A DNA stretch of 64,000 nucleotides from the NCBI GenBank assembly GCA_963833125.1, contig CAWHWX010000005.1, positions 1 through 64,000 of the forward strand, written 5' to 3'. Both the position numbers and the translations under genes were made by a program. Below are positions 2 through 41,074 of the stretch, one piece after another. Under the pieces are notes generated by a model. It did no database searches, was not told where the DNA came from, and saw only the letters and a program-made list of their open reading frames with translations. The DNA comes from Candidatus Bathyarchaeota archaeon. GTDB taxonomy: Archaea > Thermoproteota > Bathyarchaeia > 40CM-2-53-6. The first letter of the stretch is position 1; each line of letters begins with the position of its first letter.

Positions 2-229
2 CAGAGGGCTGCGGATTACAAGCGTGTGACCCGGAGTCGAATTGTTGAGGAAGCCCTTTGGGCGTACCTGTCGAAATTAACAATAAACCGGAACGTCGTG
101 GAGAGACTCCGGCTTGCGAACGGACTTATTCACCAAACCCTTGTTGAAGCCTTCAAAACTCCGTTGCAGGAACACAAGCCGGCGAACATTCATGAGGCTG
201 AAACACGGCAGGAGAGGAGGAATCGATGA
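2..229 (+). CDS. Ribbon-helix-helix (CopG-like) DNA-binding protein, 5'-truncated by the window edge
   Basis: Frame open from base 2: QRAADYKRVTRSRIVEEALWAYL resembles RHH helix A/helix B (xSRSxIVxxAL). Confidence 0.5.
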   Translation, partial: QRAADYKRVTRSRIVEEALWAYLSKLTINRNVVERLRLANGLIHQTLVEAFKTPLQEHKPANIHEAETRQERRNR

Positions 230-488
230 TCTGAGAAACTCGACGCCGCATTCGATCAGATTTACGAACTCTCACAATCCGAACAGGTTGCAGGACAGAG
301 TCAGATGCGGCGGAGTCATGTATGCGCTTTTCAGGTGTATGGCTTCAGCGAACGAGAAGATACTACGCGGCGCCGCGGAGGAGGAAATCCTTAGCTGAGG
401 TCACGAACTTCGTGAGGAGCAGAGAGAGTTTGAGGAAACTACCAGACAATTCGAGGAACAAGCTAAAGCGTCTGCAGGAAAGACGTAG
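226..488 (+). CDS. Small helical protein upstream of the terminase (possible small-terminase-like partner), frameshifted
   Basis: ATG overlaps the RHH stop. Pieces across frames read EKLDAAFDQIYELSQSE...ASANEKILRGAAEEEIL...HELREEQREFEETTRQFEEQAKASAGKT-stop (TAG 486-488). Several indels must be assumed. Confidence 0.3.
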
Positions 489-3402: not shown

Positions 3403-4194
3403 TCAGTCTCTAATTGCTAGGTAGAGCACTGAGAAAGCAAGGTACTCGGAGAACGGAAATTGAGACAGCAGTTTGTCGACCATTGTGAATATTCTCAGGA
3501 GGGTGTGTGAGCATGTTCTCGCATACAACATCGTTGGCAGAATCAAAATGCCCTTAGTTGAAACCTTGTACCTGCCCGACTGCTCAAGCATCCGTTTGAT
3601 TAGAAGATGATTCATGCGGCGCATCTCTGGAGGAAAATCATCTGATCGAAGAACATTCACAAACCGCAGCAAGGTTTGAGAAAACAGATAGGATACGTTC
3701 TTGCCGTTCCAAATGTCATAAAGCAAGATACACCCATTGGATGAACAGACCCTTTGAGCCTCACGCAGAAACTTGGCCTGGTCCCTAAGATACTTCATGA
3801 CCCTGATCGAATACACAAGTCCGAACGATCCGTCACGAAAAGGGATATGCTCCATATCAGCAAGAACGACATCTGTTTTTCTCACTCTCTGCTTGGCCGT
3901 TAGAGCCATGTTGGGTGACATGTCCAGGCCGATCACGCCGTGTCCTTTGGACGTGACTATGAGGTACCTCCCCGGCCCGCAACCCACATCTATCCCACAA
4001 TCGAACTCCAGACTACTGATGATCTTGAGAATCGCCTCGCGCTCCATGTCTGCCTGAACTTTCAAACCGAGGCTACCGTAGCCGCGAAGTGTCCCGTAGA
4101 AGGACTCTCCATCAAAGCGGTTTACTATACCTCTCTTATAATGATCATAACCTGCCTGACGTGTCATTGCCACCCCTCCTAACTGAGCAATCAT
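3403..4194 (-). CDS. Class I SAM-dependent methyltransferase
   Basis: IDVGCGPG motif I, GLDMS, ADMEHIPFRDGSF. Confidence 0.9.
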   Translation of the reverse strand: MIAQLGGVAMTRQAGYDHYKRGIVNRFDGESFYGTLRGYGSLGLKVQADMEREAILKIISSLEFDCGIDVGCGPGRYLIVTSKGHGVIGLDMSPNMALTAKQRVRKTDVVLADMEHIPFRDGSFGLVYSIRVMKYLRDQAKFLREAQRVCSSNGCILLYDIWNGKNVSYLFSQTLLRFVNVLRSDDFPPEMRRMNHLLIKRMLEQSGRYKVSTKGILILPTMLYARTCSHTLLRIFTMVDKLLSQFPFSEYLAFSVLYLAIRD

Positions 4195-38728: not shown

Positions 38729-39259
38729 TTACAGTTTTCTGAGGTATTCGAGTATCGTGCGATAGTCATCTTCGCTCAAACGCCAGCCTGCTCTTCGCAT
38801 CTCAGTGAGTTTTCCCACTGCTTCATCTCTTCGCATCTCACCTTCTTGATACATCCTTCCGAGCAGGTAACCAGTCCCGTGACATTCTACCTGCATCAGT
38901 CTAGCAGTGGACCTCGCAGCGTGGTCATCCGCGATCAGGATTCCGTCGAGTTCCTTGGCGATGGCGAGTGCCTCAGCTTCAGCTTTGTGCAGAGGCTTGT
39001 TTTCGCCTTCGACAGCGATCTTCATGAGCCTCTTGACTTCCGAGGCGCTGCGAGGTCGAGTAAGTATGAGCGCGGCTTCTTCAACAAGTTCCCGTATTAC
39101 TGCGACCTCTGGCTTCCCTTGGGCTTCGCCGGCCAAGAGTTCTTCATAGACGCTTTCGGGCAAGAACTTCTTGTTCTGTAACTTCCTTAGAGCTTCCGCC
39201 AGCGAGGCCCTGATTATGTAAATCACTGGAGTTGTGTCGAAGACTAGGGGCTTCGTCAA
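38729..39259 (-). CDS. DUF3368-type PIN-domain protein
   Basis: LVFDTTPVI, PESVYEEL, LHKAEAEALAIA, IADDHAAR, GTGYLL; TTG start at 39259. Confidence 0.85.
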   Translation of the reverse strand: MTKPLVFDTTPVIYIIRASLAEALRKLQNKKFLPESVYEELLAGEAQGKPEVAVIRELVEEAALILTRPRSASEVKRLMKIAVEGENKPLHKAEAEALAIAKELDGILIADDHAARSTARLMQVECHGTGYLLGRMYQEGEMRRDEAVGKLTEMRRAGWRLSEDDYRTILEYLRKL

Positions 39260-39267
39260 ACCGCGCG

Positions 39268-39597
39268 CTACTCTTTCTGTGCTGCCTCGAAGTCTTCGAT
39301 GAATTGCTCCGCCGAATACTGTATTGGTATCCTTCTTTTCTCGAGTTCTTCGAGAAATTCCCAGATGGAGCGGTTGGCGAGACCGGCGGCTTTCAGGGCT
39401 GTGACTCTTCCCGCTTCGTACAGGCTTATCGCTTTCCCAAGTCTCCATTCTCTGATGTACAGGTCGGTTGCGCGGGCTATCACTGAAGACTTGTCGAGCT
39501 TCTCCTCGAGCGCGATCCGCTCGATCTCACGCGCAACCTCCTTTGGTAATCTTGCCGCCACTACCTCCATTAGCCGGCTCTTTGCCAAATCACGCAC
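39268..39597 (-). CDS. UPF0175-family antitoxin
   Basis: RHH-like N-terminus and AISLYEAGRVTALKAAGLANRSIWEFLEEL. Confidence 0.85.
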   Translation of the reverse strand: MRDLAKSRLMEVVAARLPKEVAREIERIALEEKLDKSSVIARATDLYIREWRLGKAISLYEAGRVTALKAAGLANRSIWEFLEELEKRRIPIQYSAEQFIEDFEAAQKE

Positions 39598-39768: not shown

Positions 39769-39883
39769 TCCTGGTAGGTAAGCTGTAACTTCTAGGTGTT
39801 ACCTGCATCAACTAGTCTTCGCTTGAGGACGACGTTTATAGGACCGCTGCGGACGACGGCCGACCGAACCTACCAAAGGAGGT
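39769..39883 (+). ncRNA. Predicted structured 5' leader of the DIP1984-family gene
   Basis: TGGTAGGT (39772-79) pairs with ACCTACCA (39868-75). Internal hairpins GTAAC/GTTAC and GTCTTC/GAGGAC; GGACGACG twice. The stem abuts the AGGAGGT SD. Confidence 0.55.
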
Positions 39884-39895
39884 ATTGAAAAAGAT

Positions 39896-40384
39896 ATGAA
39901 ATTATTCGAAGCCCTCGCCCTAAAGAAAGCTCTCCAGAACCAGTTAACCCAACTCATCAGCATTAGAAACAGCACATTCGAGTACCCCGAAGACGAGATA
40001 CCTGAATTCAATTTCCAAGAGCTTACTAGTCGAATAAAAGAAAAAGTGAACGAAATTACAGGCTTGAAACTTGCCATCATGCGAGCAAACATGACCAGCA
40101 AACTACCCAACGGATACACACTAAATGAGGCAATCATTGAACTCGCAAATATCAGGTCCGCCGTAGATCAATTTCAGGACCTATTACAAATCGGAAGAAG
40201 CCGCTTCCTCTTCAGCGAAAGGAGACGAAATACCACAGAAATCAAAACAATAAAGCAGGCAGCTCCCGACAAGATCCTAAAGATGATTGAGCAATACGAC
40301 ACCAAACGAATACTCTTCGACGCAATCATCCAAGAAGCAAACCACACAACCGAGATCAACTGGCCACAAAACAGCAAACAATGA
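39896..40384 (+). CDS. DIP1984-family (septicolysin-annotated) helical protein
   Basis: MKLFEALALKKALQ start, IMRAN, TLNEAI, C-terminal DAIIQEANHTTEI match the family pattern; strong SD AGGAGGT. Confidence 0.8.
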   Translation: MKLFEALALKKALQNQLTQLISIRNSTFEYPEDEIPEFNFQELTSRIKEKVNEITGLKLAIMRANMTSKLPNGYTLNEAIIELANIRSAVDQFQDLLQIGRSRFLFSERRRNTTEIKTIKQAAPDKILKMIEQYDTKRILFDAIIQEANHTTEINWPQNSKQ

Positions 40385-40406
40385 AACAATTCCTCCACAG
40401 GCGAAT

Positions 40407-40604
40407 GTGAAGGGGAGATCAGGGAAAGAGCGAGACGAAAGCTGAAAGACCTGCTAACTTGGTACCTAGCGTAGAGGCGCTTGCTTCAAAACTCATCAGA
40501 TCCTCCAACTCAAAGATCAGACGCGTTCAAAGACGCAGATTACAGCTCAAAGATCAACCCAAGGGCTGCAACTCTCGGTCGCTCTGAACCTGACCCCAAA
40601 TCAC
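40407..40604 (+). ncRNA. Predicted ~200-nt structured RNA with internal TCAAAGA repeats, downstream of the DIP1984 gene
   Basis: End-to-end stem GTGA/TCAC, GGGG/CCCC, TCAGG/CCTGA, AGAGCGA/TCGCTCT, CGA/TCG enclosing an A/C-rich loop with TCAAAGA at 40510, 40527 and 40547. Confidence 0.65.
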
Positions 40605-40638
40605 TCAAGAAAAATCGTCCTCTAGTGAATGTAGGCAA

Positions 40639-40944
40639 ATGAAAATCGGGAGTTGGGACATTTACATAGGGTTTCTGTACTCCAGCCTGCCGGCGGATTG
40701 GAAAGGTCTGGAGCTAGATGAAGCATTCAAGCGAGGAAGACCGGTATGGCAGATCATTGGCGTGCACCTCTGGCATGACAGCACCGACGAGGTGAGAATG
40801 TTTGAAATCCACCTGAGTCGGAAAAATGGAGCCCGAGTATCTTACCGTCACCTTCCAGCATTCTGGATTGCGATGACCTGCAAGTGTGACGAATGTAAGC
40901 ATGTAAGAAGGAAGAGGAAATTGAAAACTATGAGGAGCAACTAG
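40639..40944 (+). CDS. Hypothetical protein with C-terminal CxCxxC and basic tail
   Basis: 101-aa ORF with ATG start; no family recognised. Confidence 0.5.
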   Translation: MKIGSWDIYIGFLYSSLPADWKGLELDEAFKRGRPVWQIIGVHLWHDSTDEVRMFEIHLSRKNGARVSYRHLPAFWIAMTCKCDECKHVRRKRKLKTMRSN

Positions 40945-41029
40945 CGAGCGGTTGGCAAGTATCGTTTGAGTGTAACGTCAAGTTAACGGTTGTTAAGAGA
41001 TCCGCCTTGTTTTCTGTTCGGAATTAGGG

Positions 41030-41074
41030 GGGGTGGATCCACCCCTCGAGGGGTGGTGCCAAACGGTGCCAAAC
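41030..41074. repeat. Overlapping perfect palindromes plus a tandem 10-mer
   Basis: GGGGTGGATCCACCCC (41030-45), CCACCCCTCGAGGGGTGG (41039-56), GGTGCCAAAC twice (41055-74). Confidence 0.75.

Follow-up and report, generated by a model that had tools for sequence, protein, structure and literature searches.

What becomes of an RNA whose two ends are joined by a long stem around a large interior, and which sits directly behind a protein-coding gene? This question is raised by a locus of Candidatus Bathyarchaeota archaeon, which we analyzed within a 64,000-nucleotide (nt) stretch of DNA, hereafter the window (positions 1 to 64,000 of contig CAWHWX010000005.1, assembly GCA_963833125.1). The element in question (40407–40604) lies on the + strand, its first base 22 nt past the stop codon of a gene for a 162-amino-acid (aa) protein of the DIP1984/DUF6847 family. 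A preliminary description made from the letters of the DNA had taken it for a structured non-coding RNA (ncRNA) of about 200 nt with a long terminal stem, and conservation, covariation and a transcript all agree with that view. We go further and consider it fairly probable that the element is a gene for a 182-nt circular ncRNA produced by the archaeal tRNA-splicing pathway, with the circle as the functional product and the DIP1984 protein as its likely partner. The biogenesis is the supported part of this proposal; the function we infer only.

We identify the stem that closes the element as an archaeal bulge-helix-bulge (BHB) motif. As defined in PMC7714728 and PMC3978253, this motif consists of a 4-base-pair (bp) helix between two 3-nt bulges, and PMC3978253 defines a strict and a relaxed form. 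In the element, a central helix of exactly 4 bp (H) is placed between an AGA and an AAA bulge, and each flanking helix has at least two Watson–Crick pairs in the window, namely 4 bp on the exon side (h) and 5 bp on the circle side (h') (Table 1). The handedness of the motif is correct on the + strand only. The intron-bearing tRNA-Val(CAC) of the same genome, which served as a geometry control, shows the same layout of a helix followed by NN^N. The pairings GTGA/TCAC, GGGG/CCCC and TCAGG/CCTGA had been listed correctly in the preliminary description, as had the AGAGCGA/TCGCTCT helix further inward (40427–40433/40579–40585) and the symmetric GAA/GAA internal loop, and the minimum-free-energy fold uses the claimed pairs.

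The organism clearly uses BHB splicing widely. Its genome encodes both an endonuclease and an RNA ligase, with two genes of the EndA family (PF01974; 84.1 and 52.3 bits; 185 and 190 aa) and one RtcB gene (PF01139, 574 bits). The EndA genes are on contigs C34 and C14 and the RtcB gene is on C16. The presence of two EndA paralogs suggests a heteromeric enzyme; according to PMC7714728, the (alpha-beta)2 endonuclease occurs mainly in the TACK superphylum, including Bathyarchaeota, and accepts a broader range of BHB motifs. As a separate observation, ARAGORN run with introns allowed on this genome (contigs C2, C3 and others) called 29 of 35 tRNAs as intron-bearing; several of these introns are at non-canonical positions and some are implausibly long (>500 nt), and many of the calls may be false.

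Evidence for the circle itself came from a peat metatranscriptome, in which a single matching contig of 157 nt (1 mismatch) was obtained when the region 39850–40950 (1101 bases) was used for mapping. The contig reads 40546–40599 and then 40418–40520. Because position 40599 is joined back to 40418, it implies a circle of 182 nt. Both ends of the joint coincide with the boundary between the second and third bases of the bulges predicted from the fold; cuts in both bulges and circular ligation are represented by this contig, from one run (X1) of one study, with the presumed activity of the two enzymes behind them. Four letters (ATCA) are common to both sides of the joint, and assembly at k=31 cannot generate the joint from this shared 4-nt word. 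Run X1 contains 0.06 of the sampled words and supports no habitat claim; it gives no cover over the DIP1984 open reading frame (ORF) or the flanks and is not evidence about the mRNA.

The same contig can be read in another way, which we regard as quite improbable: the DIP1984 transcript would simply end in the element as a linear, structured RNA, and the joint would be an artifact of reverse transcription or a rare tandem duplication of the DNA in the sampled strain. Such an account would fit a joint found in a single contig of a single run and flanked by a 4-nt repeat, as is typical of template switching, and the library may contain DNA. However, the ends of the joint match both cut sites of a BHB motif that is recognizable from the fold alone, a coincidence for which rough reasoning gives a chance of ~1e-5 for two random ends in 1101 bases, and in all 22 DNA copies of the element described below it is linear with its flanks.

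For the circular RNA, we propose the following route. Transcription from a promoter ~60 nt upstream of DIP1984 would run through the ORF and on into the element. The flanks of the element would fold into the BHB motif (GUGA/UCAC, GGGG/CCCC with the AGA and AAA bulges, and UCAGG/CCUGA), the splicing endonuclease would cut each bulge between its second and third bases (AG^A and AA^A), and RtcB would ligate the ends of the excised segment 40418–40599 into a circle, which, being free of ends, should persist. An A/T-rich box is present at the position of the putative promoter in 14 of 14 homologous loci (TTTATA in 4, TTTAAT in 7 and variants in 3), and no such box is evident directly 5' of the RNA element; co-transcription with DIP1984 would therefore be the simplest reading.

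Table 1. Coordinates of the BHB motif, the features of the RNA and the adjoining genes in the 64-kb window.
Feature	Position	Strand	Remarks
Excised RNA, 182-nt circle	40418–40599	+	Back-joint in an RNA-library contig
Outer exon-side helix h, GUGA/UCAC	40407–40410 / 40601–40604	+	From the fold; 57.8% of cells paired, 16 sequences
Central 4-bp helix H, GGGG/CCCC	40412–40415 / 40594–40597	+	G-C at all four pairs in 16 of 16 sequences
5' bulge AGA	40416–40418	+	Putative cut after 40417; back-joint starts at 40418 (4-nt ambiguity, ATCA on both sides)
Inner circle-side helix h', UCAGG/CCUGA	40419–40423 / 40589–40593	+	100% of cells paired
3' bulge AAA	40598–40600	+	Opposite unpaired A40411; putative cut after 40599
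Helix GAGC with GCUC	40428–40431 / 40581–40584	+	98.4% of cells paired; G-U variants fit the + strand only
Hairpin AGCGU-AGAG-GCGCU	40468–40481	+	Invariant, within the most conserved ~45-nt block
Three CUCA-N2-3-GAUC motifs	40492–40502, 40509–40518, 40546–40555	+	UCA and GAUC cores conserved in the alignment
Covarying hairpin GCGU/ACGC	40523–40536	+	6 bp in most relatives
TATA-like box TTTATA	39835–39840	+	61 nt 5' of the DIP1984 start codon; putative promoter
DIP1984/DUF6847 family gene, 162 aa	39896–40384	+	Profile matches
101-aa ORF	40639–40944	+	No family match; accompanies the module in the window's clade only

The folding energy, which the preliminary description had proposed to compare with that of shuffled controls, gave a borderline result: the + strand folds better than the average shuffle (z = -1.7), while 15 of 200 shuffles fold as well. 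The corresponding values are z = -2.4 for the - strand and z = -1.6 for the circular form, for which 20 of 300 shuffles were as good. Since this test is borderline, the case for the RNA rests on comparative and transcript evidence, not on folding energy.

The comparison includes 22 copies of the element, that of the window and 21 further copies from 4 related genomes and 15 metagenome contigs. Seventeen are full-length, one more is full-length but decayed and lies at a contig start (G004b), and four are 5'-truncated and break at different points (L016, L017, and L034, which equals L037). Blastn detected the element in 4 of 41 related genomes; across the order it was present in 5 of 105 genomes, which belong to a single family. 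A covariance model recovered the same 5 genomes among 59 of the family, and the 15 metagenome contigs were retrieved with a degenerate pattern of 20 bases taken from the invariant 3' portion. The search for other copies that the preliminary description had asked for thus found homologs in related genomes and none further in the genome of the window, where both blastn and the covariance model report a single copy. The earlier view that the element is neither a terminator nor a clustered regularly interspaced short palindromic repeat (CRISPR) array was right, and it is not a miniature inverted-repeat transposable element (MITE) either. TRF returned 0 rows and thus no tandem array in the element. 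An end of a MITE or insertion sequence, named there as a contrary outcome, does not fit one genomic copy with no integrase or tRNA adjacent.

Sixteen sequences were aligned, omitting L033 (an exact duplicate of L029), L035 (near-identical to L027 by eye) and the four truncated copies. RNAalifold gave a closing stem and a branched interior; before pairs were counted, the outer helix was included in this structure and one hairpin was lengthened. In the 16 sequences, 92.7% of the cells pair, against 30–43% when the partners were slid, and the covariation score of 0.174 compares with a maximum of 0.066 among these slid controls; the observed value was reached in 0 of 500 shuffles. Firm covariation is confined to the inner closing helix and one hairpin. 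One pair of h' switches from A-U (5 sequences) to G-C (11 sequences), and in the covarying hairpin pair 140/153 is G-C in 6, U-A in 6 and C-G in 3 sequences, while pair 143/150 is C-G in 10, U-A in 5 and U-G in 1. Many G-U pairs are compatible with the + strand only. Several other helices never vary, so that the predicted interior structure is partly supported; the hairpin at 40468–40481, for example, barely varies, and its pairing is a prediction.

Of the parts of the BHB motif, 15 of the 16 aligned copies retain the central helix, the AGA bulge and h'. The AGA bulge is clean in 15 of 16 sequences, and the 3' side in the second clade of copies forms a 2×2 or larger loop. The outer helix h is poorly conserved, with U-A/A-U swaps in some sequences. 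Many relatives, including most of the second clade, would be substrates of the relaxed HBh' type.

The interior of the circle carries the three CUCA-N2-3-GAUC motifs. With both strands of the 64-kb window searched, the pattern CTCAN{2,3}GATC has 3 matches, all 3 within 40492–40555 (+); ~6 would be expected by chance in the whole window. The motifs picked out in the preliminary description are also in place, with TCAAAAC at 40486, TCAAAGA at 40510, 40527 and 40547, and an exact CTCAAAGATCA at 40509 and 40546. Its GCTA/TAGC hairpin stood in part: the listed pairings are present in the window, and the hairpin is not kept in the other clade.

The clustering of such sites could also reflect a function of the DNA, namely as a site of recombination or attachment, or as clustered protein-binding sites containing GATC, conserved independently of any RNA. 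At least 3 conserved GATC sites within 80 nt, four truncated copies that retain only the 3' part, rearrangements around the element, including the inverted copies in G004, and a look-alike of the hairpin unit 5' of the promoter in the second clade are all in keeping with this idea, which we nevertheless hold to be highly improbable. Compensatory changes in two helices and G-U pairs that fit one strand indicate an RNA, the element is single-copy in its genome, and no integrase or tRNA lies nearby. Moreover, the partial copy L034/L037 equals the L029 locus without the promoter, the DIP1984 gene and the 5'-most two-thirds of the RNA, the missing part spanning from the look-alike unit upstream of the promoter to a hairpin inside the RNA; because this is a deletion within an otherwise identical locus, the copy is not a duplicate of an attachment site.

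The look-alike unit is an observation in its own right: at L029 (1647–1776) and other second-clade loci, ~35 nt resembling the unit 'CUCA..AGAUC - hairpin - AGAU' stand 5' of the DIP1984 promoter. The inverted copies of G004 (contig C48, L015) occupy 128–340 (+) and 3452–3658 (-), ~3 kb apart; between them lie a ParE-type pair and a fragment of a terminase large subunit. Small deletions affect conserved motifs of the copy at the contig start, which appears decayed.

The element is linked to one gene. In tblastn searches, each of the 17 full-length copies that have room upstream is directly preceded on the same strand by a DIP1984 homolog (17 of 17), whereas none of the 4 truncated copies has one beside it. 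Searching for the protein first, we found DIP1984 in 4 of 401 Bathyarchaeia genomes, all 4 of which have the RNA, and PF20935 in 1 of 401 sampled Thermoproteota genomes, that of the window. These counts cover the loci above; at the protein level, 62 DIP1984 clusters are known, some of them 48–61% identical. Given the low search counts (4/401, 1/401 and 5/105), DIP1984 and the RNA form a rare, patchily distributed module. The DIP1984 gene was never seen without the RNA, and remnants of the RNA occur without the gene; an argument from this pattern is weak, as most of the sampling started from the RNA and the remnants are truncated. Viral contigs contained neither the RNA patterns nor the DIP1984 protein, and plasmid and phage collections gave no match to the protein. 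A provirus link was accordingly set aside, the nearest terminase of the window's own genome being 39 kb off.

Between the clades, the four-fold degenerate sites of DIP1984 are saturated (16–33% identity over 37–45 sites in 28 pairs), and the 182-nt RNA retains 68–75% identity in the same 28 pairs with gaps counted as differences. About 110 of 190 alignment columns, including the 45-nt block, are invariant or nearly so. Judged from these alignments, purifying selection acts on the interior of the circle.

This selection bears on a rival that starts from the same BHB motif and back-joint, according to which the DIP1984 mRNA carries the element as a BHB intron, either in its 3' untranslated part or between cistrons. 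What matters would then be its removal, which might for instance trim or stabilize the message or alter the expression of the next gene, and the circle would be a functionless by-product. A UTR intron has a precedent in the 5' untranslated region (UTR) of HVO_1309 in Haloferax, as reported in PMC7714728, and one gene is invariably found in cis to the element. We nonetheless judge this explanation unlikely, in that mere removal needs the ends only, yet the interior has its ~110 near-invariant columns of 190, with the 45-nt block and the three motifs, and is 68–75% identical where neutral sites are saturated. In addition, the downstream gene varies between loci (the 101-aa ORF, a convergent ParE pair and others).

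Returning to the circular RNA as a product, the circle is probably best taken as the working molecule, since its interior appears selected, the three motifs and the invariant block are conserved, and it would have no ends. It would display the three CUCA-N-GAUC motifs and the 45-nt invariant block, most likely as protein-binding sites, and the best candidate for binding them would be the protein encoded in cis, DIP1984, so that gene and RNA would form a two-part module moving horizontally. The conserved arginines of DIP1984 (R24, R87 and R110 invariant; R109 and R111 nearly so) would suit RNA binding. The patchiness, the toxin–antitoxin neighbors and the pattern of decay point to a toxin–antitoxin- or defense-like module, and the circle is probably the RNA partner of DIP1984 in such a patchy, mobile unit. 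More speculatively, and with little confidence on our part, the locus might represent a new archaeal two-component class, in which a circular RNA antitoxin or regulator, matured by the host's tRNA-splicing endonuclease and ligase, would hold several copies of DIP1984 on its three CUCA-N-GAUC sites.

Several observations weigh against the circular-RNA proposal. The folding energy is not significantly better than that of shuffled sequences. The 3' bulge faces an unpaired A, giving a 1×3 loop, so that the motif departs from the strict canonical form; most second-clade copies lack the outer helix or have it displaced and irregular, and the transcript evidence comes from the window's clade only. 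The circle rests on that one 157-nt contig, with a depth of 3.4, from a single run; its positions 40521–40545 (25 nt) fall outside the contig cover, contigs show neither strand nor abundance, and a 4-nt microhomology at the joint is also expected from template switching by reverse transcriptase. Finally, the partnership of DIP1984 with the RNA is drawn from gene linkage, not from physical association.

The closest known relatives in biogenesis are the archaeal circular RNAs that arise from BHB motifs, such as introns of tRNA and rRNA, the pre-16S and pre-23S circles, the HVO_1309 5'-UTR intron and the cbf5 intron, which share the 4-bp helix, the 3-nt bulges, the cuts within the bulges and circularization. 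Unlike these, the element lies outside tRNA, rRNA and coding regions and follows the gene of a rare accessory-family protein; it is 182 nt long, its interior is strongly conserved, and it makes up a separate family without an Rfam match. The permuted signal recognition particle RNA of Thermoproteus is another functional RNA circularized from a BHB-flanked gene. In the BHB-flanked permuted tRNAs, as presented in PMC3978253, the circle and not a linear precursor would likewise be the working molecule. In contrast to them, nothing indicates that a known RNA is restored by the circle: ARAGORN in circular mode found no tRNA or transfer-messenger RNA in 16 of 16 circles, and Rfam gave no partial matches to the unpermuted sequence.

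Other systems resemble the module in their composition. The circular isoforms of omega-RNA from IS200/IS605 elements in archaea (PMC12558985) are likewise circular RNAs beside, and co-transcribed with, the protein gene of a mobile element; in Halobacterium salinarum, that paper describes circular omega-RNAs that lack a BHB motif and partner TnpB, whereas the element here has a BHB motif and its candidate partner is a 162-aa helical DUF6847 protein. The module may also be set beside toxin–antitoxin systems of type III (ToxIN), which likewise combine a protein gene with a processed, repeat-bearing RNA and are patchily distributed among toxin–antitoxin genes. The RNA of these systems consists of tandem direct repeats of ~34–40 nt upstream of a gene for a ToxN/AbiQ-type toxin, which it neutralizes by binding. 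The element differs in that its RNA follows the gene and shows no tandem array, the protein belongs to DUF6847 and not to ToxN/AbiQ, and processing would be carried out by a host endonuclease and not by the toxin. The comparison with Y RNA made in the preliminary description did not hold up. Y RNA, which acts with Ro/Rsr, does share a terminal stem built from both ends and a large, partly unpaired interior, but in the element the stem is a cleavage motif that would be removed from the final molecule; no Y RNA of Rfam matches it, and no TROVE (PF05731) gene was found in its 87.8%-complete genome. The other analogy drawn there, a sponge or platform that displays the repeated motifs, may still apply.

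Very few natural substrates of archaeal splicing endonucleases are known outside tRNA and rRNA; PMC7714728 reports one 5'-UTR BHB intron in Haloferax and states that a single other such intron, that of the cbf5 mRNA, had been described in archaea. No literature on this RNA, or on circular RNAs beside DIP1984-type genes, was found in main texts, and supplements might list further circular RNAs. If our proposal is true, the element would found a conserved and selected family of circular ncRNAs in uncultivated Bathyarchaeia that is tied to one protein family, and would provide a case from nature of a stable circular RNA that is encoded by a gene within a mobile module. DUF6847, whose structure 3kdq is solved and unexplained, would gain a first functional lead in the form of an RNA partner. 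As a BHB cassette, the element would be both compact and natural, comparable to those now being engineered to produce circular RNA, and the approach suggests that back-joints in public metatranscriptomes can expose circular RNAs of organisms that cannot be grown.

Other identities of the element were considered. Rfam gave no match at the gathering score for the window, none at E ≤ 10 for 40300–40700 and none at E ≤ 1 for five related loci, in line with the check suggested at the outset. A C/D box small RNA was rejected, as the two matches on the - strand are weak (E 3–4; 15–16 bits against cut-offs of 45–52) and the order of the boxes does not fit. A kink-turn in the GAA/GAA loop was set aside because the loop differs in the second clade (by eye). 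As for coding, ORFs over the element are short or absent in the window, and two frames seen elsewhere, one of 81 aa in G019 and an antisense one of 93 aa in the second clade, are unconserved; the differences in length among copies (8, 7 and 1 nt) are not multiples of three, which argues that the stretch is non-coding. Antisense targets in the same genome are limited to matches of 14–20 nt at chance level (E 0.6–7.5), and pairing of the circle with the ribosome-binding site of DIP1984 was dismissed since the CCUCC involved is confined to the window's clade. A read-through fusion of DIP1984 with the 101-aa ORF was also discarded, the shared frame being broken by a 1-nt difference in G019 and thus probably a coincidence; in the window itself, DIP1984 and the 101-aa ORF would stand in one frame after the predicted splicing (40382–40641), with a TGA stop and 24 sense codons between them.

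The DIP1984 gene was assigned by its matches to PF20935 of Pfam (E 6.9e-14, above the cut-off) and to NF038048 of NCBIfam (E 6e-18; 65.4 bits, under the model's 70-bit cut-off). A weak full-length match to PDB 3kdq, annotated as 'uncharacterized conserved protein', is its sole structural relative, and a full-text search found no literature on the function of DIP1984/DUF6847. The 101-aa ORF has no match in Pfam, NCBIfam, PHROG or PADLOC; its homologs lie 3' of the RNA in the window and G019 and 5' of DIP1984 in G004, and none was found in the other clade.

No tRNA was found in the 64-kb window. Directly upstream of DIP1984 and divergent from it, the window encodes a 239-aa PIN-type protein (DUF3368; 38729–39448, -), which corresponds to the PADLOC candidate PDC-S70 (E 2e-15); in G019, the PIN homolog follows a 100-aa ORF that may be antitoxin-like. 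A convergent ParE-type pair adjoins the module in G004, G065 and several metagenome loci, and two genes without known function lie upstream of it in the second clade, where the 259-aa upstream protein had no usable match in the ESM Atlas. Terminase genes or fragments occur near the module in G019 and G004. The nearest terminase homolog of the window's genome, 39 kb from the module as stated, is a large-subunit homolog at 594–1277 with 37% identity to that of G019, and fuller copies are present on contigs C1 and C16.

Two further features are adjacent to the element. An imperfect 21-nt direct repeat (71% identity; 40388–40408 and 40612–40632) brackets it just outside the BHB motif, and parts of the repeat can pair across the element and extend the outer stem. 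The gap of ~550 nt that follows the 101-aa ORF contains seven consecutive G, then the perfect 16-nt palindrome GGGGTGGATCCACCCC (41030–41045) and then GGGGTGG (41027–41056 in all), a region that could be a protein-binding site or a terminator-like hairpin.

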